Below, in pieces: positions 802-63,244 of a stretch of 64,000 nucleotides of DNA. The stretch comes from Carcharhinus amblyrhynchos. Its lineage: Eukaryota. Position numbers and translations under genes: made by a program. Positions within the stretch are counted from its first letter, which is position 1; the number at the start of each line of letters is the position of its first letter. Location: assembly GCA_965287045.1 (NCBI GenBank), contig OZ336878.1, forward strand, positions 105,586,001 to 105,650,000. The letters are read 5' to 3'. Under the pieces are notes generated by a model. That model was not told the origin of the DNA and searched no databases. It saw nothing but the letters and a program-made list of their open reading frames with translations.

Positions 802-837
802 CAGCTTTGTTTAGCGCAGTTTTCAACGACTTAATTT
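802..837 (-). CDS. Microexon C0, 36 nt, (E)IKSLKTALNKA
   Basis: cctatctctccaccag|AAATTAAGTCGTTGAAAACTGCGCTAAACAAAGCTG|gtgagg; same length and pattern as the other C exons. Confidence 0.75.
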
Positions 838-3280
838 CTGGTGGAGAGATAGGACACTTGTGAATATTGTTCTACTGATTTGCATCCTTAGTGCAGTTTG
901 CTGCTTGTTTTCTTTCGCAGCTCATTCGGAATTTCGATTGAAATTAGTAGCATCTAACAAACGAGAAAGATGTAATCAGCAAGACACGCGTTTCTATTTG
1001 CAATTATGCATCAACGTTTCTTCATTTGACTGACTATACCTTGTGTAAAACAAACCGAACCATTGTTGCCTTAATTCGAACATGAAACCAAATATCATCT
1101 TTGACCCTGGTTTGTTGGATTAATTGCAGGACGGAAAAGGAGTCTTATGACTACCCATAATCACCCAGGGTGGTTTGACCAATAATCACGTAAGGCCTCA
1201 ACATTTTGCGCAACCGCAATCAAGATGTTGCTGGCAGTGCGAAAGAAGTTTTCCATAGGCCATTACCATACAATCAGAAAAGAAAAAACAATAGTTGGAT
1301 TATTTCGACAATCTATGGCCGGGTAGCAGATGAAGAACCCGGCAAAAATGCCGGGAGTGAAGTCAAAGATTTCATTTGACATGACCATTATTTCATTCAA
1401 CGGAGCAGTGCCATTTTGCCCCGGTCGTGAAAAAATTGCATATTAGTTTCCAAGTATGAGGAGAGCTGAAACAAATATTCGATCATATAGAGCACGTTTC
1501 CCAGCTTCTCTGTTTTTTTTTCAACGCTACGTTCAATTCGGTTAAGTACAGAAAGTCTTTTTTTTGTCTGAACTGCAAGGATTATTGGGGCTGAGATGAC
1601 ATTTTTCCTCTGCTTGAGACCAAATCCCTCATCCATATATTACTTCACTGGGGCATTTAATGACAACACGCTTCTACACCACAACTCATTGTTCTTCCAA
1701 ATATACTATCCTTACTTCTGCAAATTTATTCTATGCATTCCTATCCTCCAGGTGGTATCACGACAACGGACAATATCAACGGTGGCGTTGATCCATTTGA
1801 TGAGTCGTCCGGCAGTTTTCTTAGGAATTCCGGACCAGTAGGACAACTTGATAGTTGAAAAGAAAAAAAAACTGATGAGAACCTCCCTGTTTTCGGTGAA
1901 TGCCGTTGACAATGCAAAACAGTTCGCAATTTGCATAGGCCTGTAGGAAATACCAGGGAAATTTCGAGGGATTGCACTTAGCCCCAAAATTGGTTAATGA
2001 GGCAACTGGTTCCCAGCCAAAACATCCACTGAACCATTAACTGTACCTGAACATTCCTGCACATGCTCCACGAGCGGGGTTCATGAATAAACGCTCCATA
2101 ATAACAGCTTATGCACTCAAAAATTTGACGATATTTTCTACCTTCCAATTATCCAACGAATCCAAGCGACTACCGGTAGTCATGACTGAGCTACCACGCC
2201 TTCCGCACTTAGGAATAATTCAATTGCCCAGAATCTTTCTGGTTAGGCTACCAAAACCTACAACACTTGTTTTTACTCGCGTCAACACTGACACATCTTA
2301 ACATAAATCAGTAGCAACTTTCATACTAGTACATATTTCCTTTAAAATTCCCCCTGACTCGTTTGCCCTCCAACATTGCACAGAATCAAAATCCAGCTCC
2401 ACGGCTACCGTACACCCAACTACATCGCCACTCCTGATCAAACACGCAACGAATGTTCAACCATTCGATCCGCTCAATTCCCTTCAGTCATCGATCAAAC
2501 CAACGCCCTCACGATATTTATTCCACCCACTATCCTAACCCATTATCAGTCACAGTCTCCCGAAATATGTCGGCTTCCATGATCTCTCGTCTCCCGATTG
2601 AAGCGAACCATGTAATCAATTGTCATTCACCACCAGACAAATCAATCACCAAAACTCCAGTAACATTCGATCAGACAAAAACAGCTCCCCGCAACTAACA
2701 ACAAACCTTAATTTACTAGTTCAATAATACAGTACGTTACTAACTCAATAACACCCGCCTGATTATACCTAAGTGTCCAAGCGCAGCATTACCTCAGCCC
2801 CATCTATGTTTATTTTAATTCTCCTTAAAACCATGTCAAACAGTTGAATAGACCACCCACGTGACCACGTCAAGCGCATGCCCAGTCATTGCAGAGCATT
2901 AATCTAAACCTCACCCAGCTAACCCCGTGTCAAGTCCATACCTCTTTCGTATACCAACTTCGGATGACAAAACGCGCTCAAAGCCAGTTGCTCGATCAAC
3001 AACCACCTCGCCCATAAGCCAAATGAGGGGTCTCCTAGCAGGAGAAACCTACCCCTACACATCAGCAAACATACTCAACCCTGTGATTCTGAGCCACCAA
3101 CCAAATCCACCTTTTAAAGCCTCATGCCCACTAACGAGTCATTTATATTCCTTGACGCTGATAGCCCACTTCCAACTAGCAAAACAGATCTGCCATAAAC
3201 GCGTTCAGCATGTACCCATCTCATAAAATTAGCCATCTACCTAGTTCTATATGTTATCCGTTCCAACGCACACCCTCACA

Positions 3281-3326
3281 CATACACACACATGCACTCT
3301 ACACACACACGCACACACACACTACT

Positions 3327-3367
<41 letters not shown>
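3281..3367 (+). repeat. (CA)n microsatellite, imperfect at left
   Basis: Directly visible CA tract. Confidence 0.95.
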
Positions 3368-3370
<3 letters not shown>

Positions 3371-4121
3371 TCAGCCTGTCACCCGTGAAAACTTATGTCT
3401 ACCACAATAATCAGCGAATCATTTGACATTCAAGCTTATCAGTCTACAGCAGGAAGGGCGTTTTCCCTTCCACTGACTAGAAGGCACGACTGAGCAATTC
3501 CCTGTTGAGACTGCAAGGGCTGCAGTTTCAGTTTTGGCCAACGAAGTCACAAAATATCTTTGTGTACAGCCTTGCCACAATATCAGAAGGTGTAAGGGTG
3601 TATGGCATTAAACATAAAGTAATCTTTAGTGGGGTTCCTGATATTCTGACAATTTATTTGCGATTGCTTTTCTGTAGCTCAGTGGACATGGATTCGACAA
3701 CGTAAGACTTTCACTTCAGCCAGAAGTACATTTAGGATAATACTGTCACTGTCTGTGGCCATTGCCGAAAGATTGCGGCTTTGTTATTTGCATGAGTGAA
3801 GATCGACGTGAGAGGCTGGTGATCTCCCTTGTGAAAATAGTAAATTTGCATCAATGCAGTCATTGTGCAACTAAATGCGTTTTTGTTTTGCTGGGCATTG
3901 AGCAACTGGAGCTTTCGTAATTTCCATAGCTTCCAGGAAACGACACAAATATATTTTCCCGCTTTTATGTCAACTGCAAATAAGTATTGAACCTTAACAT
4001 ATAGTTTTAGTCTTTTTATTCCGGTTGTGATATAACTAGAACTCATCCGATCCTTTTGATGTCCTATTCGTAAAATATTAAAAAGTACTGTTACGCAGAC
4101 AACGACAAAAACCGTCCTCAC

Positions 4122-4148
4122 CCTTCATGTTTGCTTGAAGCTTGGCCT
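4122..4148 (-). CDS. Microexon A0, 27 nt, (E)AKLQANMK
   Basis: tattttaag|AGGCCAAGCTTCAAGCAAACATGAAGG|gtgagg; similar to A3 (EAKLAATVR); weaker AAG acceptor. Confidence 0.65.
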
Positions 4149-6659
4149 CTTAAAATATTTTTGAGAATCAAAATTAACTTGGATGCAAAATAACATGAAT
4201 GTCGTTCGTGTTTGTTTAAAACAGGAAGAGTCAGGTATAGCCGAGTATAGCTGAAAGGAATCAGTGTCCTTGAAGAGAAAAATGTTCGCGCTTCAATGGT
4301 ACATAGATCTAATTTCCCCAGAAAAAAATGTTTGGCAAGCTTACAGTTTGGCGAAACTCAATTTTACATGTTGCAAAAAAGAATAGCATAAATGTTTAAA
4401 TAATGCAATGGTGTCAATGATATTCAATTTGTTGATTTTCAAATTGTACAATTAAACCTTATCAGTTTGCAATTGCTCTAGAAATTAATGCAACAATACA
4501 ATTTTGGTGTGTGCAAAAATGTTTAGAATAACATCACAAATTTCAGATGGTTCTCTAAAAGCGTCGATTTAGCACATACTGCTATAATGTAAGCAGCAAA
4601 TTATTTAAATAACATTATATACCGCAAACCAGACAGAAATAACAAGAGGTGCTTACTTGCTGAAAAGAAAGATGCGTTCCAGATGTTGTTTCTCAAACCA
4701 TCATCAGGACATGCGGATTCCAGGTTTCAAAATATAACAGCAGAACTTGTTGGTAGGTGGGCTCTAATTGCCCTAGGCTTTACCATGGAGTCAGGAATGA
4801 GGATGGATATCGTTAACTAAAAGCAAATATGCAAGGCTTGAACGTATTTCATTTGCATGATAGCAATATTTGAATCTTCTGCTGTATATAAAGCTTCCCA
4901 TGAACGCTTATATGCGGTCCATCCTTGAATGAAATTCATGGTTGAAATTGAACAGTCTAATGAACAGCCCTTGGTCGGCTGTCGCTAAACCTATCCACAG
5001 ATAGGTTTAATTCTATTTTATGCAACAAAAAAAGTACCTTATCTGGTCATCGTTGTGCCTATTGGTGAACTCAATCACAATTTTGCCAATAGGTCCGGAG
5101 TCAGTTCCCGATCTAGTAAGATTAATACTAAAACTATGACACATCCTAGCTGTTCTGCACGATATTGGCCATCGCCGTCACATCACTGTGTTCTCAATTA
5201 AAGAATGAACATAAGATCTCCACCACAGTCATGGAAGTTGTGAAACAAATCTTAAATTACTCTGACAAGGGAGGCATTTCATTTTTGCAAGGAACAGTTG
5301 AAGCGAAACACTCCCTTGTTACTAGCTATACAAGCTTTACTTCCGTTATTAGAATGCCGTTGACATGGTAATCGGACGGGAGAAATGCTCTGTTTTCAGA
5401 AATGGTTCTTATTTGTTTTAAGAGCTCATCCGTTTCTATGATGGTAATGCAATTGGAATATTTGAGGAGACTGCAGTTCTTTTTTCTGTATTTTGTGCAG
5501 ACATACACATTTAATTAATAAAATCCACTGTTTAATTTGAACATTTGTATATAAACTGATTAATTCTTTTCAATGTTGAAACCTCCAAACGTACCATATT
5601 AAGGACATTACAAGCTACTGCATTACATGGGCAAGGTGTGCCAAGATCCGAGGCCAGATCCCTGGCTTGTTGGTAAGATTAGGCGTTTGACAAATACGGT
5701 TTGCTTAAGAGAGACAAAGCAAAAAAAAAATCCAGAGTTGCGTAGGGAACAAAGTTATAGGGTTCCATGTGCTTGAACATAGGAAAAAATAACTTCTTAA
5801 CATGAACTCAAGTGAATTATAATCACTCTATTGTGTGAAAACGAGCATGGTAAGGTATGTGTGCAAGCAGATGAAAAAAAACGATTCAGACAGAAGAAGG
5901 TTTAATGTATGTGTTTCTGGGATTTCGAAACACAAGGGCGCACAATCGGTGCACAGAGGACAGAGTTGCGTTTTTAGTTTATCTTCGTACGATGGTATAG
6001 CCCATTTGGAGGTACGTAGGCTACAAGGAGAGAGCGGATTTGGAAGAAGTGGTATGATGCTTGCCTTCAATTCAAAGGTACATTAAATAATGATAACAGT
6101 TCCAGATCTTCTAAATAATCCAGTAAATTAGTAACCGCCACAAATTTAAAGTAACAGTGTTTTGACGCGAGAGCTCAGTCCCGTGTTTTACACATTCACT
6201 GCCATTGGTATTAGCACATTCGCACAATTTGCCATTCTTGTAGCCACAGGAGTTCCGGGATTCGGCGTTTCAGCATCGGCTGTAGGCACAGCGAGATTGT
6301 CCTGCGTCCCATATTTCTGATAAGGTTGTGTTCAACTTACGGAAATGCAGTCAAAAATTGAGTTGGTGGCTGCCAGTCGGACTGCGGCAGACTTGTGTTC
6401 AGGCATGCTACATTGCCCCTTACGCAACATATTTTCATCTGTTTCGGAAAACAAATGGAAAGACCCTTCCTCTGGGTCGTGCAGCCCGAGGCAAGTTCAT
6501 GGAACTCGAGGTGGCTCAGCTTCTGGGGAACGAAGAGAGAGAGTGAATTAACAATACATCCAGGAGGCTCGATAGTGGACGTTGAACAGTAGCGCATCTG
6601 CAGAACCCAGCGTCAATCCTGGATGTTGCGATTCCTCCCTGGTGCCAATAACAATGAGC

Positions 6660-10720: not shown

Positions 10721-10890
10721 ATGTAAGTAAGATATGGCTTTAAAATAGCAGGTGGCCTGTGGTAGACCACATCACGCTGCACAATTAACGAAGGTATGTC
10801 TCAAGAGAGAGTGCACGGATTTCTAGTAGAACTGCCCAGACGTCTGTCACAACCCATATTCAAAGTGTTACACGTAACAAAAAGCATTGC

Positions 10891-10944: not shown

Positions 10945-11210
10945 CTGAGAAAATAAAGATTCCCCAACTCATTGGCTTCGATATCAGTTCTCCTGAATTA
11001 CGAAGCACACAGTGAAGATCCAATTCCCCACGCCCATCCGCCTCCCCGCTCAAAGAATGGATCCTCAGGTCTTCGGCCGCACCGAGCAGAGTACCATCAT
11101 TTCAAAACAGTAACTTTGGTCCAATGCCCACTGCACAGAGTCATCAATTTTTCAGTGATTCTTGGATTATCAGAGCACCACTTAGCATTTTTAAAATAAC
11201 CAGTTGTGCA

Positions 11211-12136
11211 ACACCAAGATTGGGGGAACGGCAAATTGTGCGGAGGGTGTGGAGAGTCTGCAGAAGGATCTAGATAGGCTGGGCGAATGGGCCAGGAAAT
11301 GGCAAATGGAATTTAATGTTGGCAAGTGTGAGGTGGTCCACTTTGGTAGGAAGAATGGTAGGAAGGACTATTACTTACGTGGCGAAAAACTGCAGCATGC
11401 GACGGTGCAGAGGGACCTCGGGGTCGTTGTGCATGAGTCGCAAAAACCCAGCTTGCAGGTGCAGCAGGTGGTCAGGAGGGCGAATGGGATGCTGGCCTTC
11501 ATAGCGAGGGGGATTGAATATAAAAGTAGGGAGGTCTTGCTGCAGCTGTATAGGGCATTGGTGAGGCCGCAGCTGGAGTACTGTGTGCAGTTTTGGGCGC
11601 CGCACCTGCGCAAGGATATTTTGGCCCTGGAGGGAGTGCAGAGGAGGTTTACTAGGCTGATACCGGAGTTGAGGGGATTGAGCTATGAGGAGAGGCTGAA
11701 TAAACTAGGCTTGTACTCGTTAGAGTTTAGAAGAATGAGGGGAGATCTCATTGAGACGTATAAGATGATGAATGGGATGGATAGGATAGAGGTGGAGAGA
11801 CTCTTCCCGCTCAAAAAAGACAGTAGGACTAGGGGGCACAGCCTCAAGATAAAGGGGAGGCGGTTTAGAACGGAGTTGAGGAGGAACTTCTTCACTCAAA
11901 GGGTGGTGAATCTCTGGAATTGTCTGCCCGTTGAAGTGGTGGAGGCTGCCTCGCTAAATATTTTTAAGAAGCGGGTTGATGGGTTTTTGATAAGAGAAGG
12001 GATTAAGGGTTATGGGGAGAGGGCGGGAAAGTGGAACTGAGCCACGACAGATCAGCCATGATCTTATTGAATGGCGGGGCAGGCTCGAAGGGCTAGATGG
12101 CCTACTCCTGCTCCTATTTCTTATGTTCTTATGTTC
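11211..12136 (+). mobile_element. Young 5'-truncated CR1 LINE (ORF2 C-terminus, 3' UTR, TTCTTATG tail)
   Basis: ORF 11204..12040 with LQKDLDRLGEWARKWQMEFNVGKC, YRALVRPQLEYCVQFWAP and RNFFTQRVVNLWN; tandem 8-mer tail. Confidence 0.95.
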
Positions 12137-14001: not shown

Positions 14002-14028
14002 CTAAAATTTTACTATTCCTTTCCAGAT
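14002..14028 (-). CDS. Microexon G4, 27 nt, (D)LERNSKIL
   Basis: ttctttattttcag|ATCTGGAAAGGAATAGTAAAATTTTAG|gtagaa; similar to G2. Confidence 0.6.
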   Translation of the reverse strand: MWKGIVKF

Positions 14029-15161: not shown

Positions 15162-15185
15162 CTTTAAAATGTATAACGTTTTCCA
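15162..15185 (-). CDS. Microexon H4, 24 nt, (V/M)ENVIHFK
   Basis: ttttgttttaccacag|TGGAAAACGTTATACATTTTAAAG|gtaatc. Confidence 0.65.
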
Positions 15186-16725: not shown

Positions 16726-16752
16726 TGAATTTAGCCTTGAGATTCCCATCCT
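16726..16752 (-). CDS. Microexon I3, 27 nt, (E)DGNLKAKF
   Basis: ttctctttgtttacag|AGGATGGGAATCTCAAGGCTAAATTCA|gtgaag; strong acceptor, weaker donor. Confidence 0.5.
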
Positions 16753-18884: not shown

Positions 18885-18911
18885 CGGAAAATTTATGCAA
18901 TGCCTTTAAAT
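18885..18911 (-). CDS. Microexon G2, 27 nt, (D)LKALHKFS
   Basis: cttcctacttttcag|ATTTAAAGGCATTGCATAAATTTTCCG|gtagga. Confidence 0.65.
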
Positions 18912-19593
18912 CTGAAAAGTAGGAAGTTTCCTTGAAGCGCAATATTCAGAATCATTAAAAATAATAATTCACGTTTTGTCATTAGCAATGGCCTATAACT
19001 CATAAGCAAGAATGACAAAAAGTTGTTGACCAATTAAACGATTAGATACAGCTTGGTGTATATCAACTGAGTCGAAATAAAAATAGAGGAAAGCAACACT
19101 CTTCGAGGCAAAATCATTTCTATTGTTGAGTTGCACACGGGGAAAACATGTTGTTCACGTTTGCCTTAGCAGTTTCACAGGTATGCTGATGCAATTGCAA
19201 TATTCTAGCTGTCATTAATTTATCTCTAATAATTGATTAGTTTTCCAATGTTCGTCATTCTTTCAGATTTGAATGGCTTTGGTATTCAAATGCCAAGTGA
19301 AATGAGATCAGTGCTAAAAATGAAAATATGCAAATCAGATTGCCGAATGACGGCCTCATATGTTCCCGCCTGTTTCAAACAATATAATTGAAACAATTTG
19401 GCTCAGGGCTACACGTGAAAAAAACAGTCTGAATCAAGGGAAGGAACTTGATCCATATGAAGAGCGTCGCGGGATTGCACAGTACAATGACAAGCAATGA
19501 ACACATTGTAAAGAAAAAATGTAATTTGCGTTAATATTAGAAACATTGCCTTTCTCGTCAATTATTGGGTACACAAAAATATTTGTCAATTAC

Positions 19594-19617
19594 CCGTAAT
19601 TTCCTGAATCTTTTCAG
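19594..19617 (-). CDS. Microexon H2, 24 nt, (A)EKIQEIT
   Basis: ggtctgtgtgttcag|CTGAAAAGATTCAGGAAATTACGG|gtaatt. Confidence 0.65.
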
Positions 19618-26352: not shown

Positions 26353-26376
26353 CTGTTAGTGAATCTGTATTATTTT
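26353..26376 (-). CDS. Microexon H1, 24 nt, (E)NNTDSLT
   Basis: tctgcctctttccacag|AAAATAATACAGATTCACTAACAG|gtgatg. Confidence 0.6.
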
Positions 26377-26695: not shown

Positions 26696-28387
26696 CTTTA
26701 TCTTAGGACGTGTTAATTATCCGAAAAAAAACTGTTTTTCTTTTTCTCTAAGAGCTGGTAAAACGAAGTAACGAAGTCCCTTCAAACTACTAATATGAAA
26801 TGCCGAAATAATAAGTCACTTAGCTAAAAGTTGTTGTTTCAATGCTGATGCGCGTCGTAACACAACGTCTGCAAATTTCAACCACTCTGTCGCCGTTTCC
26901 TTATTGATTTCTGCATAGGAACACAGGCATAATGAAATCCATACCAAAATCTATTATTTTAAACATACCTTTCCGTTAGGAACATTGCATTCAATGTATA
27001 TCACATCAGTGGAACAGCATAGTCTGCCGCGTAAATGCATTTCCCTTCAGTAGCATCTGCATCATTTAAAAATCTGTCTAGAACTACACTTGCCCATGAA
27101 TTAAACATAGAATACTTCCGATGATGGGATGCTGAATTAAAAACAGCAAAGGGAGCTGAAATCGCAAGGGCCTGGCAGCATAATTGGAGAGGAGATACAC
27201 AATTTGCCCTTCCTGTCACAAAGAAGCCCACATATTTCGGAGATTATGAATCGACTCGACAGAACAACTCAACTCCCCTGACCAGCTGAAATTTTTTGAT
27301 CACCTCCATGTTTTATTGAAAATTTTGCATGTTGTTTACGTTACGCGCAAGATAACATTGTTTGCAATTATTAGAGTTACACGTGTGCTTATCATTGTCC
27401 TATAGAAGATCTTAGTTTCCTTTAACCCTAATTGTTTATGCTGATTCCAAATAATGATATCAAACAATATTATTCCCATCCGTCTGGCGAGTGACAGCCT
27501 GCTTGAAATTTTGGGATGACATTTAAGCATTCCGTTACTGCAGCATATATTACTGTGAATTAAACGAAAACATTTTTCACCTTCTCCGTTGTTTTGAAAC
27601 CTAAGCTGCTGAATTCCTTATACATGACTTAGCTACAAACTAACTTCACCGTTCCAATTTCTAATGGATCTCACCCCACCATCTATCCATTCGCTTCTTC
27701 TGTGAACTCTTGATATCGAGTGTGATTTTACATATAACATTATTCGTCTTCTTGGTTATATTCCGTGTGGGTAATTGAAAGCTAATTTGCCCAATTCGAG
27801 AGAAGCAGTTCCATCCTTACATGAGGGAAGCACTTCTAGAAAAGGTTTTTTTTTTATTCTAGATCGCTGGGTTTTTTTCTCAGGTGCCCTCTCAAGACCA
27901 GTTCTTGCCATTGGGTGTCCTCGAATAATCATGTCTCTTCTGCCAAGGGGTTCTTCCGTGCAGGATCGTTCTGAACAAGATTTTTTCGGTTGCTCACGTC
28001 TGAAAAAGCAGAAAACAAAGAGGGGTACAGCCCTAAAACTGGCCTTATTGCCCACCCAGCCCACACCGTCATGTCACACATTTCTAGAAAAAAAATACCC
28101 CCATGCATTCCATATTCCTCTATTCCTTGCATTGCCTTTTAAGTGGGAGGATGCCACGGGAAGTTTGCTATTTTATTTGCATCCACCGTCTTCTTTGTCA
28201 GCACGTTCCAGGAACTTATCATTCTCTGTGTAAAAATAAATCCTCTCACAACTTCTTTAACATTTCCCATGTTTACCTTAACACTGTATCCGCTTACGAT
28301 TGGCATTTCTATCCTGCGAGAACGACTCAGAATGTAGATAACGCTACCCTCCACTCCCAGTCTCCCCGCCAGAACACCATAATTTTA

Positions 28388-29335: not shown

Positions 29336-29362
29336 CGTTAGAATTCATCTTCTCAGTCAACT
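29336..29362 (-). CDS. Microexon B1, 27 nt, (E)LTEKMNSN
   Basis: ttatctggttag|AGTTGACTGAGAAGATGAATTCTAACG|gtgagt; homologous to B2 and B3. Confidence 0.8.
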
Positions 29363-29494: not shown

Positions 29495-29521
29495 CTTTTT
29501 CTCTCACAGCCAACTTCTCTT
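29495..29521 (-). CDS. Microexon A1, 27 nt, (E)EKLAVREK
   Basis: ttcttactttcag|AAGAGAAGTTGGCTGTGAGAGAAAAAG|gtaaag; homologous to A2 and A3. Confidence 0.8.
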
Positions 29522-30495: not shown

Positions 30496-31281
30496 ATAGT
30501 AGGAAGGATTATTACTTACGTGGACAATAACTGCAGCAGGCGACGGTGCAGAGGGACCTCGGGGTCCTTGTGCATGAGTCGCAAAAACCCAGCTGGCAGG
30601 TGCAGCAGGTGGTCAGGAAGGCGAATGGGATGCTGGCCTTCATAGCGAGGGGGATTGAATATAAAAGTAGGGAGGTCATGCTGCGGCTATATAGGGCATT
30701 GGTGAGGCCGCAGCTGGAGTACTGTGGGCAGTTTTCGGCGCCGTACTTACGCAAGGATATTTTGGCCTTGGAGGTGGTGCAGAGGAGGTTTACTAGGCTG
30801 ATGCCGGAGTTGAGGGGGTTGAGCTATGAGGAGAGGCTGAATAAACTAGGCTTGTACTCGTTAGAGTTTAGAAGAATGAGGGGAGATCTCATTGAAACGT
30901 ATAAGATGATGAATGGGATGGATAGGATAGAGGTGGAGAGACTCTTCCCACTCAGAAAGGACAGTAGGACTAGGGGGCACAGCCTCAAGATAAAGGCGGG
31001 GCGGTTTAGAACGGAGTTGAGGAAGAACTTCTTCACTCAAAGGGTGGTGAATCTCTGGAATTCTCTGCCCTTTGAAGTGGTGGAGGCTGCCTCGCTAAAT
31101 ATTTTTAAGACGCGGGTTGATGGGTTTTTGATAAGCGAGGGGATTAAGGGTTATGGGGAGAGGGCGGGAATGTGGAACTGAGCCACGACAGATCAGCCAT
31201 GATCTTATTGAATGGCGGGGCAGGCTCGAAAGGCCAGATGGCCTACTTCTGCTCCTATTTCTTATGTTCTTATGTTCTTAT
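30496..31281 (+). mobile_element. Young 5'-truncated CR1 LINE
   Basis: ORF 30546..31181 nearly identical to 11204..12040; TTCTTATG tail. Confidence 0.95.
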
Positions 31282-32118: not shown

Positions 32119-32154
32119 CTTTTTCTTTTAGCAACGTTGTTAGTATCTTTATTT
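32119..32154 (-). CDS. Microexon C1, 36 nt, (E)IKILTTLLKEK
   Basis: tttttttttcag|AAATAAAGATACTAACAACGTTGCTAAAAGAAAAAG|gtgact. Confidence 0.8.
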
Positions 32155-35443: not shown

Positions 35444-35464
35444 CATTTTCTTTCCTTTCGGCAC
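35444..35464 (-). CDS. Microexon D1, 21 nt, (G)AERKEN
   Basis: tttcatttctgatgcag|GTGCCGAAAGGAAAGAAAATG|gtaaga; homologous to 63224..63244. Confidence 0.75.
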
Positions 35465-37214: not shown

Positions 37215-38598
37215 GACCAATGTAATCACCGTCTTAGAGTGGTTTGGGAGCATAGTCATAACCCCATGAAAAGAATGGCCTGAGTGAGCAGACACAGCAC
37301 GGATTCGTTAAGGGGAGGTCGTGTTTGACGTATTTATTTGATTTCTATGAGGATGTGACTAGTGCGGTAGACAGAGGGGAACCGGTGGATGTGGTGTTTT
37401 TAGATTTCCAAAAAGCGTTTGATGAGGTGCCTCACAAAATGTTGCTACAGAAAGGTAGGGTGCACGGAGTTGGGGGTAAGGTGTTAACATGGATAGAGGA
37501 TTAACTGTCTAATAGGAAGGAAAGAGTTGTTATCAATGGGTGCTATTCTGGTTGGCAGCTGGTGACCAGTGGAGTGCCGCAGAAATCGGTGCTGGGGCCT
37601 CAACTATTTACCATTTATATAGATCATCTGGAGGAGGGGGCTGAGTGTAGGGTGACAAAGTTTGCTGATGACACGAAGATAAGTGGAAAAGCAAATTGCG
37701 TGGAGGGTGTGGAAAGTCTGCAGAGAGATCTGGATAGGCTGAGTGAGTGGGCGAGGACCTGGCATATGGAGTAAAATGTTAGCAAGTGTGAGGTTATCCA
37801 CTTTGGCAGAAATAATAGTAGGAGGGATTATTATTTAAAAGGCGAAAAGCTGCAACATGCTACGGTGCAGGGGTCCTTGTGCATGAGTCGCAAAAACCGA
37901 GTCTGCAGGTTCAGCAAGCGATCAAGAAGGCGAATGGAATATTGGCCTTTATAGCGAGGGGGAAAGAATATAAAAGTAGGGAGGTCTTGCTGCAACTGTA
38001 CAGGGTACTGGTGAGGCCGCAGCTGGAGTACTGTGTGCAGTTTTGGTCGCCGCACTTGCAGAAGGATATATTGGCCTTGGAGAGAGTGCAGAGGAGGTTA
38101 ACTAGGCTGATACCGGAGATAAAGATGTTGGCCGATGAAGAGAAACTAATTAGACTGGGTCTGTACTCATTGGAGTTTAGAAGGCTGAGGGGGGATCTTA
38201 TAGAGACGTATAAGATAATGAAGGAGATGGATAGGGTAGAGGTAGAGAGATTCTTCCCTCTTAGAAAGGACAGCAGAACTAGAGGACACAGCCTTAAGGT
38301 AAGGGGGGGGGGGGAAGGCTGCAGTTTAGATCAGAGTTGTGGAGGAACTTCTTCACTCAAAGGGTGGTGAATCTCTGGAATTCTCTGCATGTTGAAGTGG
38401 TGGAGGCTACCTTGCTAAATATATTTAAGTCAGGGGTAGATAAGTTTCTGATAGACACGGGAATTAAGGGTTATGGGGATAAAGCGGGAAAATGGAACTG
38501 ATCCACTTCAGATCAGCCATAATCTTATTGAATGGTGGGGCAGGTTCGAAGGGCTAGATGGCCTACTCCTGCTCTAGTTTCTTATGTTCTTATGTTCT
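37215..38598 (+). mobile_element. 5'-truncated CR1 LINE, frameshifted
   Basis: TSGVPQKSVLGPQLFTIYI..KFADDTK; ORF 37879..38370; TTCTTATG tail. Confidence 0.95.
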
Positions 38599-42811: not shown

Positions 42812-44282
42812 AGGGCGGCGTGCCGGAGCAATGGCTAGCACTGCTGCCTCACAGCGCTAGGCACTCGGGCTCGATTCCCGGCGTGAAACAGTGTCTGTGC
42901 GGAGTCGCATTTTTTCTCCCCGTGTCTTCTGTTTTAACTTCGGTACTCCGGTTCCCTCCCACAGTCTGAAAGGCGTACTGGTTAGGTGCATTGGTCATAA
43001 GAACATAAGAAATAGGAGCAGGAGTAGGCCATCTAGCCCTTCGAGCCTGCCCCGCCATTCAGTGAGATCATGGCTGATCTGCCGTGGCTCAGTTCCACAT
43101 TCCCGCCCTCTCCCCATAACCCTTAATCCCCTCGCTTATCAAAAACCCATCAACCCGCGTCTTAAAAATATTTAGCGATGCAGCCTCCACCACTTCAACG
43201 GGCAGAGAATTCCAAAGATTCACCACCCTTTGAGTGAAGAAGTTCCTCCTCAACTCCGTTCTAACCGCCCCCCCCCCCCCGCCTTTATCTTGAGGCTATG
43301 CCCCCTAGTCCTATTGTCCTTTCTGAGCGGAGAGAGTCTCTCCACCTCTATCCTATCCATCCCATTCATCATCTTATATGTCTCAATGAGATCATCCCTC
43401 ATTCTTCTAAACTCTAACGAGTACAAGCCTCGTTTATTCAGCCTCTCCTCATAGCTCAACCCCCTCAACTCCGGCATCAGCCTAGTAAACGTCCTCTGCT
43501 CTCCCTCCAAGGTCAAAATATCCTTGCGTAAGTGCGGCGACCAAAATTGCACACAGTACTCCAGCTGCGGCCTCACCAGTGCCCTATACAGCTGCAGCAA
43601 GACCTCCCTTCTTTTATATTCAGTCCCCCTCGCTATGAAGGCCAGCATCCCATTCGCCTTCCTGACCACCTGCTGCACCTGCAGGCTGGGTTTTTGCGAC
43701 TCATGCACAAGGACCCCGAGGCCCCTCTGCACTGTCGCCTGTTGCAGTTTTTCGCCACGTAAGTAATAGCCCTTTCTACCATTATTCATACCAAAGTGGA
43801 CCACCTCGCAATTGCCAACATTTAATTCCATTTGCCAGTTCCTGGCCCATTCGCCCAGCCTATCTAGATCCTTCTGCAGACTCTCCACACCCTCCGCGCA
43901 ATTTGCCGTTCCACCAATCTTGGTGTCATCAGCAAATTTCGACACCATACACTCGGTTCCCTCCTCCAGATCATCTATATGAATGGTAAATAGCTGAGGG
44001 CCCAGCACCGACCCCTGGGGCACTCCACAAGTCACCAACCGCCAATCCGAATAGCATCCATTGACCCCCACCCTCTGCCTCCTATTAGACAGCCAATCCT
44101 CTATCCACGCTAACACCCTACCCCCAACTCCATGCCCCCTTACCTTCTGCAATAACCTCTTGTGAGGTACCTTTCTCCCTTAGTGCCCCCGAACAGCCGC
44201 CAGAGTGTGGTGATTAGGTGATTTTCACAGTAACTTCATTGCAGTGTTAAACTCAGCCTACTTGTGACCAAATAAATAAACC
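42812..44282 (+). mobile_element. tRNA-derived SINE split by a CR1 insertion (5' half about 42812..42996, 3' half about 44172..44282)
   Basis: 5' half ends ggttaggtgcattggtc; 3' half ttctcccttagtg..cacagtaacttcattgcagtg..aataaataaa is colinear with the uninterrupted copy at 15880. Confidence 0.8.
42997..44171 (-). mobile_element. Young 5'-truncated CR1 LINE
   Basis: ORF 43250..44152 with GVPQGSVLGPQLF and KFADDTK; tail cataagaacataagaa. Confidence 0.95.
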
Positions 44283-48300: not shown

Positions 48301-48327
48301 CTTTCTCTTTTGCAGCTAACTTCTCTT
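48301..48327 (-). CDS. Microexon A2, 27 nt, (E)EKLAAKEK
   Basis: attctgttttcag|AAGAGAAGTTAGCTGCAAAAGAGAAAG|gtgaac. Confidence 0.8.
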
Positions 48328-50675: not shown

Positions 50676-50684
50676 TAATATATT

Positions 50685-51600
50685 TTATTATTATGGCAAT
50701 ATACATTTTCTATATGGGGATGCTGCAGTACTGGTGCGGGGGGCGGGGGGGGCGGCGTGGGGTGCAGCTGGTGTTTGTTGTGGGGGGGGGGGATGAAGTT
50801 GGTCACCACAACATTTAAATGGCGAATCGGCCTTTATTTAATGCATACAATGAACGATGCGATCGACTACATAATGCTTACCCTCTCTCCTGGGTTGCCA
50901 CAGATCCGACTCCCGTTGACGCACGAGCTTCTCGAAACAAATGTCGTTCGACGGCCAAACGTAATGGTTTATTTTATTTTCTGGCCTGCAAATTAGCTGT
51001 CACCCTATTGCTGCGCAGTATCACAACAGCAGACAGCAACAACCAAACGTTAACCCTTTATTTTTACATCGGCTCAATGACAAGAGAAACTTATATGAGC
51101 TTATATTAAATCATTTCTTCAGTACTGATTTTGAATTCTTTGAAATTAATATATTTCATTCCACTTCAGGAATATTGGATTTGTCATTATCGTTCGGCTT
51201 AAAATAAGAAATATGATCTGAAATTATCCATGTCGTAATTAGTGATCCATTAAGAATATTTTTGTTGTTGTTGTTGGCTCGAAGCAGAAATACTTCACCT
51301 GTTTCTTTTAGCAAGGCGTATACTTTGTTTATTTCTACGAGGTAAACGGTAAAGTTATATGCAAAAATGATTAGTTCATTTATAATTAAAACAAATATTT
51401 TTTTTATGGCAATATGCATTTTCTATATGAGGATGCTGCAGTATTTGAGGGAAAAATGAAATTGGTCACCAGAGCAATTAGATCGCATATCGGCCTTTAT
51501 TTTAACCATGAGATTGGCTATATGTTGGTCACCCTTTCTCCTGGGATGACGCAACTCCGATTCCCACTGTTGTACTAGCTTCTAGAAAGAAATGCCACTC
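50685..51600 (+). repeat. Diverged direct duplication (about 50685..50950 versus 51400..51600)
   Basis: Shared ttatggcaatat.cattttctatatg.ggatgctgcagta, ttggtcacca, atcggcctttattt and ccct.tctcctggg blocks. Confidence 0.85.
51299..51334 (-). CDS. Microexon C2, 36 nt, (E)INKVYALLKET
   Basis: gtttacctcgtag|AAATAAACAAAGTATACGCCTTGCTAAAAGAAACAG|gtgaag. Confidence 0.8.
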
Positions 51601-56062: not shown

Positions 56063-56089
56063 CATCGGATTTCAGCTTTTCATCCAACT
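56063..56089 (-). CDS. Microexon B3, 27 nt, (E)LDEKLKSD
   Basis: ttatcttttag|AGTTGGATGAAAAGCTGAAATCCGATG|gtgagt. Confidence 0.8.
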
Positions 56090-56185
56090 CTAAAAGATAA
56101 TCATACAAAATAATTATGTTTCACTGTTTTTTTTCCTTAAGAGTCACCAGAAAAACAGTTCAAACCTATGGAAGTTAAGGCAATT

Positions 56186-56588: not shown

Positions 56589-56606
56589 TAGTGAAAATGA
56601 GTTTAC

Positions 56607-56633
56607 CTCTTACTGTCGCCGCCAACTTCGCTT
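56607..56633 (-). CDS. Microexon A3, 27 nt, (E)AKLAATVR
   Basis: ggttttgtttctag|AAGCGAAGTTGGCGGCGACAGTAAGAG|gtaaac. Confidence 0.8.
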
Positions 56634-58285
56634 CTAGAAACAAAACCGCAAAGTATGTTAAGCGCTATGAAGACTTTAAACATTATTGTCTGGCATAATG
56701 TCTTTCAAATGATCCTCGACTGAGGTGTAAAGGCACTGTGAGCACACAAGTCAACATTGCAAAGACTTATTCTGTATAAAATATTTATAACTACAGAATT
56801 AGCAGTTCCGCAGGTGCAGTACCGAAATCAAATGAGAGACGATCTATGCGCTGTCACGAAATTGAGTGCTGGGATCCTTTTCATTTATCAGAATTTGGAA
56901 TAAAGTTGACAAAGCCGCAGCTCCAGCCACTATATTCACGGCGCTCATTTAAAGCATCCGTTATCCCTAAATTTTCCAGGAATTGAAACGTGCATCGATC
57001 ATTGGGATGAGGAGGTAGATTAACTTAAACAGCCAATTTCCTCCTTTCACAACCATCTGGAAAACAAATGTAGTTTTGCTTTGCTTCCCACTTCGTAAGC
57101 AGTGGCCTATTTCCCAATTCATCTTTTTGTTGTGTTGAAATTTCTGCTAAAAACCCTTCGATGATCTCGAAATAGCATGAGAAGAAATGGTCATCTTATT
57201 ATCGCACAGACAAATGAGGCAGACAAGTCTGACTGTGTATTCATTCTGCAAACTAGAGATGGATTAAAAACAAGGAACAAAAATTATAGAGCATATGACT
57301 ACCGATATACGTGGTTCAATCGTCAAAATCAAAGCCAATTTATGCATTCATTCCCAAATATTTGCAGGCTAATGACTGTTTCGGTATAACTAACTTTCCC
57401 AGAAAAGAATACTTCCAGGGTCAGGGAGCTCCAGGCGTGGTATCAGCCTGAAGGTGATGTTACAAGACTTCCAGTAGATTGAACGTAAAAGAAGTTAGTT
57501 ATTCAAACTTACCGAGTGTCCTCTACGTACAGACAGTTTAAAAGGATTTGCACCGGCAGAATGACTGAATGCAGTGTATACATTCGAATAGTAGGCTCGT
57601 AATTTAATTTCTGCATCCTTCATGTTTCCTTCGTATCGCTTCAGTTATAATAAGATGTACATTTCTTTCCAACACTCAGATAGCTGATTTTGATTAGTGG
57701 CAAAAATAAAAAAAGGAAAACAGTCTTCTTGTTTTTCTTGCAGTGTTAATAATTAACATTTAGCCATTCCTTAAAAAAATGCAATCTTTTCTTCCAAACT
57801 TAGAAACATTCTATTGAAATTCTGGTATTGATGGGTGGTCATTGTTCGCTGTTGATTGACAGAACAGGCCTTCTGTAAAAGGGTTTGAGTTGGAAATGGA
57901 AACAGTCATATTATTAATTGTGTAGTTCCACTGTTGGTACACTATAACTAACGATTGTAATTATAATATCTTTCCGCACTTTCTTGTTCTTTCCTCCTAC
58001 TTCTTTGTAACAACAAAATAACAGACTTCAAACAGTCACTTAGCATAAGCTGTTTTCTTCAGCTCAGGCATATTACCGAGCTTGAACCTTTTTTTTAGCA
58101 GCACTGCCCATTTTCCATTCCTTTGAATTCACATTAGCCATCCACTTCATAATCGCTGGATTTGCAAAAGTAGTTAAACCTAAAATAGCGTACACAATTT
58201 TCAGTTGCCAGTGCTATAATTAGTATGATGGTTAGCAATAACGTTATGGTACGCTTTATGTTCGCTTGAAGATGAGATCAGTCAC

Positions 58286-58321
58286 CTGTTTCTTTCTGCA
58301 AGGTTTGTAATATCCTTATCT
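58286..58321 (-). CDS. Microexon C3, 36 nt, (E)IRILQTLQKET
   Basis: tttatttttttcag|AGATAAGGATATTACAAACCTTGCAGAAAGAAACAG|gtgact. Confidence 0.8.
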
Positions 58322-59342
58322 CTGAAAAAAATAAACGAAATTTCATACAAATATGTCCCTTTATGCTCAATTAAGACATTTTTGTTATTATGGCATGGCA
58401 CGTTTGCTATTTCTAAACTATGGTGTATTAAGAATTAACTACTTAGTCTGCACAGTGTTTAGAATGCAGGTCAGTATTTTTTCAAGCGGGAAAATGCTAC
58501 GTAATGATGTCTCTTAATCGTCTCTTCCTCACACACATGCAGAAGCTACTGTCAGAAACTATACTACCGCAAGCTCACCGATGATTTTCACTGCAGCAAA
58601 GTACCCTGCAAATACTTACAGTCTGCACTCTACCCCAAATACTCCCAGCCTTCTTGTTCCGCAAGCCACGCAGTCCAGTCTCCATTGCGGAAATTGAACT
58701 CTTCCGCCCACCATAAATGCTCGCCGAATGCTCCCCATGATACTGCAACAACGTTGAGCCATTCTCCAACAGGCAGCCGCAACGCAGGAGAAGACTTCAG
58801 CAGGAGAATTAGTTGCGTAAGATAATTGTTTTACCTTTTGCTATTTAGACGTCATCGTCGTTGCTGACTTGCAGAGGTGTGAGTATGAACAACGCATTTA
58901 TTTTCGGTGACACTTTTGACTTTGACCACACTTGGGAAGTGAGGGACAGTTGGATAAACATTGTCGGCCCCAAAAACACTGTTGCAAAAGTAAGTAGTAC
59001 CAAAAAAACTAAGTTCCTGAGCTACGTATAACGATGAGTTTGTCAAAATGATAATATGCTTGCCCTGAGCGTGGTTTTCGAGCAGTGAGCGGAGAGGGAA
59101 ACTGCGTTTCACTTCGTGGGTAGATGGCGTGACTGTGTTAAGGGCAGGGCGGCGGGGTTGGGAGGAGGGGGTGGGGGAGGGTAGCATGGAGAGGTGCGGT
59201 GATCGTGTGTATTGTCGCGCTCGCGTGAACGTGGAGTTCCTTGACACTGCGTGATACGTTTTAATGTGTGTTCGTGAGCGGGTTTTGCACATCTCCAGGA
59301 TACCTTTAAGCGAATCCATCGTAGGGAGGTGTGGGGGGAAGG

Positions 59343-59387
59343 AGTGTGTGTGTGTGTGTGTGTGTGTGGTTGGGGGGGGGGGGGGGG
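59343..59387 (+). repeat. (GT)n followed by a G run
   Basis: Directly visible. Confidence 0.9.
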
Positions 59388-60724
59388 CGGTTCCGGATAT
59401 AAAAGCAACATTAATACGCACATTCTTCCTATTTTCTGGAATGTTAATCAAATTCAAAATGCGCGCATTTTTCTTCCTACTTTCTGGGGCAATTTTCAAT
59501 GGGTGGCTCTAAACTTCAATGTTATTGAAAGCAACGTTGGAAAACGGAACGGCGACAATGAGCTCCGTAACTACCGTAATGACACTGAAAGCCGCATTCT
59601 GCAATTAAAGCATTGAAAAGTCAGAACGTTTAGTTTTCGAGCTGCTGGTCGGGCAGTAACTTTGGTGAAGGTGCATGTTGCGAAAAATAAATGGTTAATG
59701 CCTCACACGAGAAACGAACAAGATAAAAAGTGTGGCTTTATAGGAAAGCAGGTGGATTACCCGGTTGTTGAACAAAATCGTAGGTGGATAGAGAAAAAAA
59801 AACTGGTAGAGTAGAAATTAAGCGCTGTGCTAGGTCGTTGTGAGTGGAACCAATCATAGGGTGCGAAGATTTATAAACCTGTAGACATTAAGGCACTGAT
59901 AGAACTAGCAGCATTCTGTTAAATTAATTTTAATATAAGGTTAAGAGCTGACAAGAAGCATTTGCGCATACAAGAATCAGTATTTGATTCAAACGTTTTA
60001 TTGTTTCGAAGGAATGTTGTCCACTTTAGTAAAATCAGTCTATTGCTCGGCATCGAGCTAAAAACACGTTAGAATGAAACCATTTTTCGAGAGATTAACT
60101 GAGCCTTGGACATATACATGTCGCATCAGCTAAAATCTTGTTTGGAAAGAACGTGTGGAGCATTTGACCACATTTCATAACTACGGTTTATTCACTGCCT
60201 GAGCGAGATGCCCTGGTGCCTAGACGAGCTTTCACAAGTTTCATTGCTTTGACAGTGACTATTAAGGGGCGTTTATTTGAACTTTGGGCTGAGCGTTTAA
60301 AGCTATTAAGCGACAGTATATTGGGCTCAGCCAAGGCAGGAGCCAACTTCCGGATTTCATGGGCTAATAGTGTACTGTTATGCCGTGAAGGGAGATGTGA
60401 ATGGTTCAATCTTTGACAGCGTTATTGTTGATCTGAGCATTTTGAAGATGATTGATTTAAAGTTCCTGAAAGATGGGAGTGATTGATAAAAAATAAGTCT
60501 GTCCTTGATTGTAAATGTTAGATTCGTCACAGAGGTTTTGTTGCTCTTTGTCAGACCTAGAAAATCCTTTGACGAACTGCTGATGGCCGTTGGTTTAAAT
60601 AAAGTTACGCATTTATTCAGAGGTGCACCTCGCAAGTCTTGCATTCTGTAAACATTAGGCGTCACTGGCCACTTTGTTTAATTCACCCACAGTCACTATG
60701 CTGTATAACCTGGCAGTTTGGAAG

Positions 60725-61590
60725 TGCAGTAAGAGGTCTCACAACGCCAGGTTGAAATATAACCAATTTGATTGATAATTAACTCACAAGCTTTGGAGGT
60801 TTGCCCCTTCATCAGGTGAATGGAGAGTGTGGCCTCAGAGCATAAAACTTCACACACAGTTTACAGATTACTGATTAGAATGCGAGTCTTTGCAAGTAAC
60901 CGGCTATTCAAATCTTAAAAATGCAGACAGTGTGAGTGGAAAGAGCATTAGGCATAGGTTAAATAGATGTGAATTGTCTCCAGACAGTACAGTAAGTGAG
61001 GTTTTGCAAACCCAGGCAAGTCATGGGGGTTGCAGATAGTGCGGCATGAAACCAAGATTCCGGTTGAAACCGTCCTCATGTGTGCTGACCTTGGCTATCA
61101 GTCTCTGCTCAGCGACTCTGCGCTGTCGTGTGTCGTGAAGGCCGATTTGGAAAACGCTTCCCGAAGGTCAGAGGCCGAATGCCCGTGACCGCTGAAGTGT
61201 TCGCCATCAGGAAGGGAACAGTCTTGCCTGGTGATTGTCCAGCGATGTTCATTCATCCGTTGTCGTGGCTTCTGCATGGTCTGCTCCATGTACCATGCTT
61301 CGGGACATCCATTCCTGCAGCGTATTAAGTAGACAACATTGGCCGAGTTGCAAGAGCATGTGCCGTGTACCTGGTGGATGGTGTTTTCAACTGTGATTAT
61401 GTCATCCATGTCGATGATCCGGCATGTCTTGCAGAGGTTGCTTTGGCAGGTTTGTGTGGTGTTGTGGTCACTGTTCTCCTGAAGACTGGGTATTTTGCTG
61501 CGAACAATGGTCTGTTTGAGATTGTGCGGTTGTTTGAAGGCAAGAAGTGGGGGCGTGGGGATGGCCCTGGCGAAATGTTCAGTTTGGAAA
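60725..61590 (-). mobile_element. Penelope-like element 3' part (GIY-YIG endonuclease remnant plus terminal repeat)
   Basis: ORF 61098..61664: PPLLAFKQPHNLKQTIVRSK..CKTC..CNSANVVYLIRC..AWYMEQTMQKPRQRMNEHR..HF..H; the YIG motif is degraded. Confidence 0.9.
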
Positions 61591-62574
61591 TGTTTCAGCA
61601 GTGTAAAAAGACGTGGTGGCAGTGCTAGGAAGAAAGCTACATTGCTATTCAGAGAGTCGACCACTGTCAGAATACGGCGCCTACCGTCGAATTCCCATCA
61701 GAGTTTCCACCCGAACAATGAGTCCACCACGGCAATTACAGACTATCCCGAATAAAACCCACAACACTAGCGATCTGCCTGGCCGGACGAATGTCCATCA
61801 AGGGCCTAGGCTTTCTTCCAGCATCGACGTGCCCGAACATTCCGACTACGGTCTATAACACTATTCCGCACCAACCTGATAGCAATGCATTTCCTCCCTC
61901 GTCATCTTACACTGATCTAACACATATTGCCGCTGTTCTAAACGCAGCTCCAAAATTTTCCTCAGTCCCTTCGCCAGCTAACTGTTCCATAACACTCACG
62001 CCAACTTCTCGACCTCTTTCCTTTTTTGCATTCTCCGTGGCTTCTGTTTATGCATTGTTACTCAGGTGCCATCAAGTTGCAGATACTGGGGTGACCAATA
62101 TCTGAAATCGTAGACTTGACTTCACTTTTCAAAGGCTATAAAAACTGCATTGGAGAGCCTTGGCAACGAGCTGAGCTCTACTTTTCATTGAAATCCCAGG
62201 CAGACGAATATCCGACATATACCTTTTTCATCGACTTTAGTAAGTCAATTATGCGCGGAATGGAAATCTATGTGATTGTAACTGATCAGATTTCTTCACC
62301 CCAAAACAAAAATGTGTTATGCATTGTTGAATTCCTGTTCGTTCTGGCAGATATAAGTGTTTTACAAAGCAACTTAATCAGTTGAATTAGTTTCGTGAAT
62401 ATATTGCTCAATCAACTTAGATGCGTGTTTCACCTCCCAGAATGGAAGAGCAAACAGATGTTGAAACATGATGCGTTTGATTAGCATCATTTGTTGCTTC
62501 AAATTTAATTAAGATAATACATCAAGATAATCATTCAAGCTGCACTGACAATTTTGATTAAAGCTTAAGTTCAA

Positions 62575-62862
62575 TTATCACTGTAACAATTAAGCTTGCA
62601 TTAACACTGTAATGAAGGTATTGTTAAAATTCCCCAGTCACCAAACTCTGGCTCTTCTTCGGGTTCACTAAGGGACGATTTAGCACAGTCAATGCGTGCA
62701 ATCAGCACATCTTTCAGACTGTGAGAGAGAGCCTGTGCACCCGGAGGAAAACCACGCAGATATAGGGAGAACGCACAGATACGTAAACACAGTGACCTAA
62801 GTCAAGAAACGAAACATGTCTCTGGCGCTATGAGGGAGCACTGCTAAATACAGTGCCACCGT
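62575..62862 (-). mobile_element. tRNA-derived SINE
   Basis: Reverse complement of the SINE at 42812 (gcattaacactgtaatgaag..cacccggaggaaaaccacgcaga..tggcgctatgaggg..gtgccaccg). Confidence 0.85.
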
Positions 62863-63223
62863 TGCAGTTGCACATCATATACAGCAAGATAATCAATTGA
62901 GTGCAGATACATGTCGGCAGTTGCAGTAATACTTCCAAAGTCTATATTTTTTCCTTGACTTATGACAGACAAATACCAAGGCAACAGAATCGTGAACGAA
63001 TAGATGAAACAATACAGTGGACGATTTGAATTGATTTATTATTGTTACAGGTATTAGTACACATTCAAAAGTATTGTTCTTTGCGCACTATACAGACAAA
63101 GCATAACCTTCATAGAGAAGGAAAGGAGAAAGTGGAGAAAATAGTTTTACAGTCATAGCTAATAAAAGGAAAACCATATAGGCTTGTTTTAAAATATTAT
63201 AATACCCAGCAATTTCGTCTTAC

Positions 63224-63244
63224 CATTGTCTTTCCTTTCTAATT
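63224..63244 (-). CDS. Microexon D3, 21 nt, (E)LERKDN
   Basis: tttcatttctggaacag|AATTAGAAAGGAAAGACAATG|gtaaga. Confidence 0.75.

Follow-up and report, generated by a model that had tools for sequence, protein, structure and literature searches.

Among the proteins that combine a coiled coil with a B30.2 (PRY/SPRY) domain are members of the TRIM family, whose short coiled coils stem from a small number of larger exons, and the enterophilins of guinea-pig intestine, which are soluble and have an extended zipper of about 45 heptads, with or without a C-terminal B30.2 domain. Enterophilin-1 is reported to bind SNX1 and to lower surface EGFR (PMC13749957). BG genes have a signal exon, an IgV exon and a transmembrane (TM) exon, 13–36 tail exons of 21 (or 24) nucleotides (nt) and no B30.2 domain, and a BG-derived zipper protein is a soluble form of the tail that regulates actin-myosin (PMC4046983, PMC5938342, PMC8813856). 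Butyrophilins have Ig domains, a TM segment, a few heptads and a B30.2 domain, and are present in cartilaginous fish (PMC12841164). Here, we describe 64,000 nt of the shark Carcharhinus amblyrhynchos (genome 2.9 gigabases), i.e., positions 105,586,001–105,650,000 of contig OZ336878.1 (C9), referred to as the window, for which a first-pass annotation had proposed a hidden array of at least 20 symmetric phase-1 microexons encoding a long heptad rod.

The 20 microexons probably make up a middle portion of a giant gene, one of a cluster of genes on one strand which likely encode soluble cytoplasmic proteins consisting of a short head, a long heptad rod and a B30.2 domain, the B30.2 domain having apparently decayed in the gene of the window. 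Like BG genes, the shark genes form a tandem cluster in one orientation and take their heptads from many symmetric small exons, and the shark array can be likened to the BG tail exons, which vary in copy number and are alternatively spliced (PMC4046983, PMC5938342, PMC8813856). Unlike BG genes, the shark cluster has no Ig or TM exon that we found, consists mostly of 27- and 36-nt exons, has up to 60–190 exons per gene spread over 0.1–0.9 megabases (Mb), and has a B30.2 exon in some copies. By position, two genes of the cluster share with butyrophilins (BTN/BTNL, ERMAP) a run of small phase-1 heptad exons ahead of a B30.2 that occupies one exon, and for one of these B30.2 domains the best match in the PDB is BTN3A1; in contrast to butyrophilins, no IgV, IgC or TM exon was found in the shark cluster, and there are hundreds of heptads rather than a few. 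The B30.2 domains of the cluster form a diverged subgroup of their own, nearer to six copies on a second contig (C16) than to the butyrophilins of two others (C46 and C53). A soluble coiled coil with a B30.2 domain is also the plan of TRIM proteins with PRY/SPRY, whereas no RING or B-box was found in the shark cluster. Judged by architecture, the closest match is to the enterophilins; the shark rods would reach up to about 270 heptads as against about 45.

Scanning the window for splice signals recovered all 20 segments; they run along the minus strand from position 63244 down to position 802, each preceded by AG and followed by GT, and the 20-exon array is thereby confirmed. When joined (555 nt), the exons are free of stops in phase 1, whereas the other two phases contain 20 and 17. 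With a trained exon model (described below), 17 of the 20 score at least 9, two score 8.4–8.7 and one (15162–15185) scores 3.4. The exons are as follows, in order along the minus strand; features within the window are given as window positions, and features beyond it as C9 or C16 coordinates.

63224–63244, minus: 21-nt microexon, phase 1-1 (exon 1), score 17.0; the array runs on past base 64000
58286–58321, minus: 36-nt microexon, score 23.7
56607–56633, minus: 27-nt microexon, score 17.9
56063–56089, minus: 27-nt microexon, score 23.5
51299–51334, minus: 36-nt microexon, score 14.6
48301–48327, minus: 27-nt microexon, score 28.6; of a class with 12 further copies on C16
48139–48165, minus: 27-nt microexon, score 18.8
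35444–35464, minus: 21-nt microexon, score 9.8; flanks homologous to those of the exon at 63224, a block duplication
32119–32154, minus: 36-nt microexon, score 22.1
29495–29521, minus: 27-nt microexon, score 21.0
29336–29362, minus: 27-nt microexon, score 13.7
26353–26376, minus: 24-nt microexon, linker-like, score 13.2; first of the block that aligns with residues 410–515 of the ray protein P0012
25373–25399, minus: 27-nt microexon, score 17.6
19594–19617, minus: 24-nt microexon, score 8.7
18885–18911, minus: 27-nt microexon, score 8.4
16726–16752, minus: 27-nt microexon, score 14.2
15162–15185, minus: 24-nt microexon, weak splice score of 3.4; closes an 8-residue gap in the alignment with the ray protein
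14002–14028, minus: 27-nt microexon, score 17.3
4122–4148, minus: 27-nt microexon, score 13.8
802–837, minus: 36-nt microexon (exon 20), score 18.4; the array runs on before base 1
19031–19066, minus: additional weak 36-nt candidate, uncertain, not in the earlier list, score 6.6
28187–28225: second additional weak candidate from the splice-signal scan, not in the earlier list

The array does not resemble what chance would give. The first scan of the window took segments of 15–63 nt between AG and GT with generic splice scores, and its high-scoring matches numbered eight on the minus strand, all multiples of three in length, versus one on the plus strand; once the thresholds were relaxed, all 20 exons came up with the lengths given earlier. 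At untrained splice scores of at least 8, there were 10 matches on the minus strand (nine of them open and a multiple of three) versus three on the plus strand (two of them so), and 20 Markov simulations of the window averaged 0.85 open matches of this kind (maximum 3), so that the comparison with the other strand and with random sequence which the first-pass annotation had called for comes out in favour of the array. As to the three-to-four spacing of hydrophobic residues that it had noted, the joined 184 residues have a periodicity peak at 3.7, which was reached by 21 of 1000 permutations.

The 62-kilobase (kb) span of the window (802–63244) is only a portion of a longer array, which reaches far to either side in a same-strand cluster of about 2.5 Mb on C9. 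The DNA examined (1.99 Mb) lay around the window and on one comparison contig. The exon model was trained on the minus-strand matches of a contiguous interval of 1.064 Mb, where it finds 201 matches on the minus strand versus 9 on the plus strand; beyond the training interval it finds 115 versus 8 (i.e., 17 minus 9). Altogether, this amounts to 316 versus 17 matches in the 1.72 Mb examined within 103.96–106.49 Mb, while no minus-strand match was found in the 0.28 Mb examined outside the cluster. Across the cluster, exons of 27 nt are the most numerous (179), followed by those of 36 (84), 24 (19), 30 (14), 18 (11) and 21 nt (4) and others (5), with a median gap from exon to exon of 3.3 kb. A second exon pattern had 10 matches in the whole genome, all within the C9 cluster and some in the roughly 0.8 Mb outside the exon-model counts. 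Among the exons of the window there are higher-order repeats of 21-36-27-27 nt with homologous flanks, from which it follows that the gene grew by block duplication.

Several parts of the cluster have a composition of their own. At 105.92–106.00 Mb, a unit of 27-30-36-nt exons is present in about five copies, the exons lying within the repeated DNA of a recent block duplication, and at 105.037–105.125 Mb a further recent block duplication comprises about 15 similar exons of 27 or 30 nt which encode a different, non-heptad repeat rich in Asp, Arg and Met. The rod part at 106.10–106.30 Mb is built on a unit of 36+18 nt and has regularly spaced cysteines. A single match to the microexon pattern (103,490,007–103,490,039, minus strand) lies 465 kb past the mapped 3′ end and is possibly another family member.

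The genes of the cluster can be read as starting with a short head exon that carries an ATG, continuing through as many as about 190 symmetric microexons and closing with a diverged B30.2 exon. The head exon is 132 nt long, with the ATG 14 nt past the acceptor, and is present in three copies on the minus strand of C9 (105,372,205–105,372,336; 104.758 Mb; 104.360 Mb). A search of 1.84 billion proteins with this exon gave two matches, of which the only credible one is the catshark protein XP_038671248.1, which begins at the Met of the head exon and then matches the subsequent microexons in order; the other (P0002), a repeat protein without a name and without relation to the array, was set aside. 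Since the head exon occurs three times and is followed by microexons in the order of the catshark protein, the cluster consists of several genes. A Tyr-x-Asn motif with acidic surroundings is retained close to the N-terminus in all three head exons, and we take it to resemble a putative SH2-docking site. The B30.2 exons and the two possible starts of the window's gene are the following.

C9 103,955,183–103,955,689, minus: intact B30.2 exon of diverged sequence, its acceptor in phase 1, 5 kb past the last scored microexon; over the Pfam SPRY cut-off
C9 106,383,664–106,384,173, minus: second intact B30.2 exon; over the Pfam SPRY cut-off
C9 104.389 Mb, minus: frameshifted B30.2 exon upstream of the next head exon
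C9 105,400,403–105,400,587, minus: decayed B30.2 remnant that starts at its acceptor; scored at 14.5 bits with E 0.0064, as against E 1.6 for the reversed control
C9 106,332,669–106,332,771, minus: candidate head exon for the window's gene; option one, a single gene of 930 kb with 191 scored exons and 1881 residues
C9 105.722–105.761 Mb, minus: gap of 39 kb, alternative start region of the window's gene; option two, 62 exons and 589 residues

The two intact exons lie on the strand of the array, 5 kb and 14 kb past the last scored microexon, and score 38.5 and 47.1 bits with the Pfam SPRY profile (cut-off 26.3). The remnant was found with a DNA profile built from three B30.2 exons (two intact, one frameshifted). 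It is situated after 105,427,990, where the window's run has its last microexon, and ahead of the next head exon, about 185 kb before base 1 of the window, and the window's gene thus likely ends without a working B30.2 exon, as far as can be read from the DNA. A genome-wide search for the SPRY family, in which 150 of 376 candidates were scored, missed the diverged B30.2 exons of the cluster; among the candidates scored, the region of C9 from 96 to 112 Mb is rich in SPRY exons.

The pairing of rod and B30.2 is best supported by the independent repetition of this layout on C16. The two intact B30.2 domains of C9 are most alike each other and six B30.2 exons of C16 (60.4–66.4 Mb). A 27-nt exon pattern has 17 matches in the whole genome, five on C9 and 12 on C16 (reversed control, 0), and all 12 of those on C16 lie 73–536 kb upstream of a same-strand B30.2 of the C9-cluster subgroup, in three independent groups, for which the chance is about 0.03. 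The matching microexons of C16, a locus known here from search coordinates only, sit on both strands. Judging from these matches, a second cluster probably occupies about 6 Mb of C16, at 60.4–66.4 Mb.

Homologous proteins were found only among elasmobranchs: five proteins reach an E of 1e-5 or better (8000 candidates scored), and they are limited to two catsharks (Scyliorhinus canicula and S. torazame), one skate (Leucoraja erinacea) and one electric ray (Narcine bancroftii), which fits the earlier impression of a shark-like genome. Exons 12–20 of the window align with residues 410–515 of the Narcine protein P0012 at 32% identity and 43.9 bits, a score equalled by none of 300 shuffles of exon order; the score rises to this value from 35.4 bits once 15162–15185 is included and 19031–19066 omitted. 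In annotated proteins of sharks and rays, the counterparts of these exons are joined in matching order. The names CENP-E, EEA1 and myosin attached to such proteins are automatic database labels, to which no Pfam family corresponds, and an identity of the catshark protein P0001 as CCDC89, ODF2 or HMMR was rejected, its neighbours in the ESM Atlas being generic coiled coils with low counts of shared features (96–121 of 256).

The isoforms of the Narcine gene bear on how such exons are used. They are RefSeq predicted models, which are usually backed by RNA-seq alignments. In a comparison which took 15 of the 19 cluster members listed, plus one, 13 of 15 are set apart from the longest solely by blocks that keep the frame (8, 9, 12 or 18 residues, spread over 11 sites), and two of 15 by their C-termini. 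The earlier idea that any exon can be skipped without a frameshift is therefore borne out by exon-sized differences between ray isoforms, but rod length is not all that would change: since none of 8, 9 and 12 is divisible by 7, skipping an exon of 24, 27 or 36 nt keeps the frame and loses the heptad register. Skipping would thus alter the geometry of the rod besides its length, the register being kept only where exons of 27 and 36 nt are skipped together.

One gene of 930 kb is somewhat favoured over two genes, because no head exon and no B30.2 remnant turned up in the 39-kb gap, and because the exons after the gap align inside a catshark protein.

The proposal of a giant gene for head, rod and B30.2 has to be weighed against a number of points. 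It draws on genomic DNA and annotated homologues, with splicing in C. amblyrhynchos inferred and the start of the window's gene tentative. The exon counts span 1.72 Mb of the 2.5-Mb cluster, and in the search for domains (below) 408 of 969 open reading frames (ORFs) were set aside as repeat-covered and ORFs were split at the borders of 10-kb stretches. At the end of the window's gene, the remnant scores a weak 14.5 bits, and the DNA profile found none at two other presumed gene ends. No B30.2 was found in homologous proteins in Pfam scans of P0001, P0003 and P0012 (the five matches have no precomputed domains), which counts against a universal link of rod and B30.2. A search for a homologue among proteins of 1279–3650 residues, a weak one, found none, and the 57-amino-acid (aa) frame of the head exon gave no candidate among longer proteins. 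As no record joins rod and B30.2, the splice from one to the other is proposed from position only. As to kinship with butyrophilins or TRIM proteins, one B30.2 prefers BTN3A1 among its nearest PDB neighbours (90.6 versus 66.8 bits), while the other is a near tie (56.1 versus 54.2 bits). Lastly, in 129 pairs of close paralogous exons, the mismatch at the three codon positions is 0.21, 0.22 and 0.29, a modest excess at the third position, which suggests weak constraint and that some exons may be dead.

Some of these points would also be expected if the rod genes were real and independent of B30.2, i.e., if they encoded lineage-specific structural coiled coils (for example, of the germ line or cytoskeleton) and the B30.2 exons came from interleaved genes or had long been lost. 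The homologous records lacking B30.2, the three other C-termini annotated for the ray gene and the generic rods among the ESM Atlas neighbours of the catshark protein fit such genes. Nevertheless, we regard this as unlikely, since the B30.2 exons lie on the array's strand directly after runs of microexons, the one at 103.955 Mb has a phase-1 acceptor, no RING or Ig exon was found as a partner for the one at 106.384 Mb, and the pairing recurs on C16.

It is less probable still, and by some way, that the gene of the window is a family pseudogene which is decaying or transcribed. A decayed B30.2 at its likely end, the lack of a clear head exon should it be a separate gene, and the weak codon-position signal would be in keeping with decay; however, all 20 exons retain AG, GT and an open phase 1 although paralogous exons have diverged by 19–33%, an observation to be read with the fact that the scan itself picks open exons, so that dead exons would escape notice.

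The likeness to BG and butyrophilins which the first-pass annotation had drawn was in part upheld: there is kinship to the B30.2 world of butyrophilins and TRIM proteins, but a membrane protein of BG or butyrophilin type finds no support, and of the flanking exons it had named, B30.2 exons or remnants do lie downstream of arrays in the cluster, while no Ig, TM or lectin exon was found. Pfam domains were searched for in the minus-strand ORFs of at least 85 aa in C9 105.40–106.52 Mb (1.12 Mb), of which the 561 not covered by repeats were scanned; these gave one SPRY, one CRTAP-like retrocopy and domains of transposon type. There was no Ig domain (a control IgC exon was detected), no RING or B-box (for which the scan had no positive control) and no C-type lectin, although split exons of that domain can be shorter than 85 aa. 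A tblastn search with the IgC exon of C46 gave a best E of 0.35, PF22705 had no match between 102.66 Mb and the end of C9, PF00059 had none among 150 of 211 candidates scored between 102.82 Mb and the contig end, and a genome-wide V-set search covered 150 of 1793 candidates. The bona fide butyrophilin on C46 has IgC, TM, a few phase-1 tail exons of 27–33 nt and B30.2 within 44 kb, and the detection of its exons indicates that the method sees Ig, TM and tail exons where they are present. The homologues start at the head Met without a hydrophobic segment near the N-terminus, their 19-residue hydropathy maxima are 0.28–1.77 with the higher of these values only in the variable C-terminal tails, and the exon scans gave no spliceable TM exon; this negative result for a signal peptide or TM segment before the heptads leans on the annotated homologues, the first exon of the window's own gene not being proven. 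Upstream, the region is closed by an RBM4-like gene (106.518–106.552 Mb, plus strand; L144, L145, L147) with RRM exons and a zinc-knuckle-like exon, head to head with the 5′ end of the cluster and usable as a synteny anchor. A TM-like frame at 106.758 Mb was rejected as an anchor for the array, being on the far side of the RBM4-like gene and closed by a stop. That the array is the cytoplasmic tail of a true BG- or butyrophilin-type membrane protein whose Ig and TM exons were missed is the least probable explanation, and a very improbable one, for although the C46 butyrophilin has phase-1 tail exons of 33 and 27 nt ahead of its B30.2 and one B30.2 of the cluster is closest to BTN3A1, the contiguous DNA from the window to the RBM4-like gene has no Ig match and the catshark and ray proteins start at a 39-residue head.

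Taking these features together, heptads in small symmetric exons are present, as in BG genes and butyrophilins, and a C-terminal B30.2, as in butyrophilins and TRIM proteins, is suggested by position for two genes of the cluster and by a weak decayed remnant for that of the window. On predicted domain content, the locus differs from BG and butyrophilins in Ig and TM, and from TRIM proteins in RING and B-box. The family is thus not placed with BG or the butyrophilins; it is likely an elasmobranch derivative of the "heptad tail + B30.2" design, giant in size and soluble.

The rod itself has a regular plan. Exons of 36 nt (n = 56) encode a hydrophobic residue at positions 2, 5 and 9 in 88%, 93% and 80% of cases, respectively, and in exons of 27 nt (n = 110) position 4 is the most often hydrophobic (61%). 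A pair of 36+27 nt encodes 21 residues, i.e., three heptads, and is the repeating unit of the array. Pro and Gly are scarce in the rod exons and the net charge is near zero. The AlphaFold model of the skate homologue has four long helices and one short helix with short loops between them (mean pLDDT 76, pTM 0.23); a homodimer prediction for skate residues 58–233, made without an alignment, scored 0.02 and gives no verdict. At 0.1485 nm per residue, the rod would be about 90 nm long with 589 residues and about 280 nm with 1881, before breaks. Such rods would dimerise as coiled coils and would be discontinuous.

In the gene proposed here, the exons would be spliced into messenger RNA in C. amblyrhynchos, and the protein would be soluble, its short head unstructured and its coiled-coil rod discontinuous; some paralogues would add a B30.2 module. 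The family may have originated when the 3′ half of a butyrophilin- or TRIM-like gene ("heptad exons + B30.2") acquired a new ATG exon, and would then have grown by tandem duplication of exons, which, being symmetric and of phase 1, could be gained, lost or skipped without a frameshift. By analogy, the likeliest job would be that of a spacer or scaffold, tunable by splicing, on which a ligand-binding B30.2 module is carried, and copies without B30.2, such as that of the window, might act through the rod alone on cytoskeletal or trafficking partners, as do the chicken zipper protein and the enterophilins; this working mode is offered tentatively. An immune role is plausible by B30.2 kinship.

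Other features of the region are as follows. The repeat content of the window is about 13%, and five retroelement-derived frames (11195–12040, 30531–31181, 37822–38370, 43250–44179 and 61098–61697) are, by their appearance, presumably ends of long interspersed nuclear elements of CR1/L2 type and one Penelope-like piece. Elements resembling long-terminal-repeat retrotransposons or endogenous retroviruses lie in introns at 105.687–105.693 Mb, at 105.956–105.960 Mb and in L165 (with protease, reverse transcriptase and RNase H matches). An intronless frame of 429 codons of the CRTAP/leprecan family, which looks like an intact retrocopy, lies in an intron of the array at 105.973–105.974 Mb (L063:2984–4270, minus strand; TPR_leprecan E 7.5e-112). 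At 102.75–102.82 Mb there is a tandem of eight single-exon C-type lectin domains on the minus strand.

A description of the family was not found in the literature searched, most subscription journals and supplements lying outside the search. It is possible, rather than probable, that this is an undescribed elasmobranch family in two clusters, with megabase genes of up to about 200 microexons, among the most microexon-dense vertebrate genes known, encoding rods that measure up to about 280 nm and bear a diverged B30.2 sensor at the tip, where combinatorial skipping sets both length and register and so makes a splice-programmed molecular ruler. Such genes are nearly invisible to annotation, as only 0.6% of their span is coding and the public models are fragment-like and named after unrelated rods (CENP-E-like, EEA1-like, myosin-like). 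If the proposal is true, a large portion of the genomes of sharks and rays that is now hidden would gain a B30.2-family identity, and the tail design of BG and butyrophilins would be extended by roughly an order of magnitude and taken off the membrane. These genes would then be a natural system for the recognition of hundreds of symmetric microexons across introns of many kilobases, and for the question whether exon skipping tunes a protein ruler.

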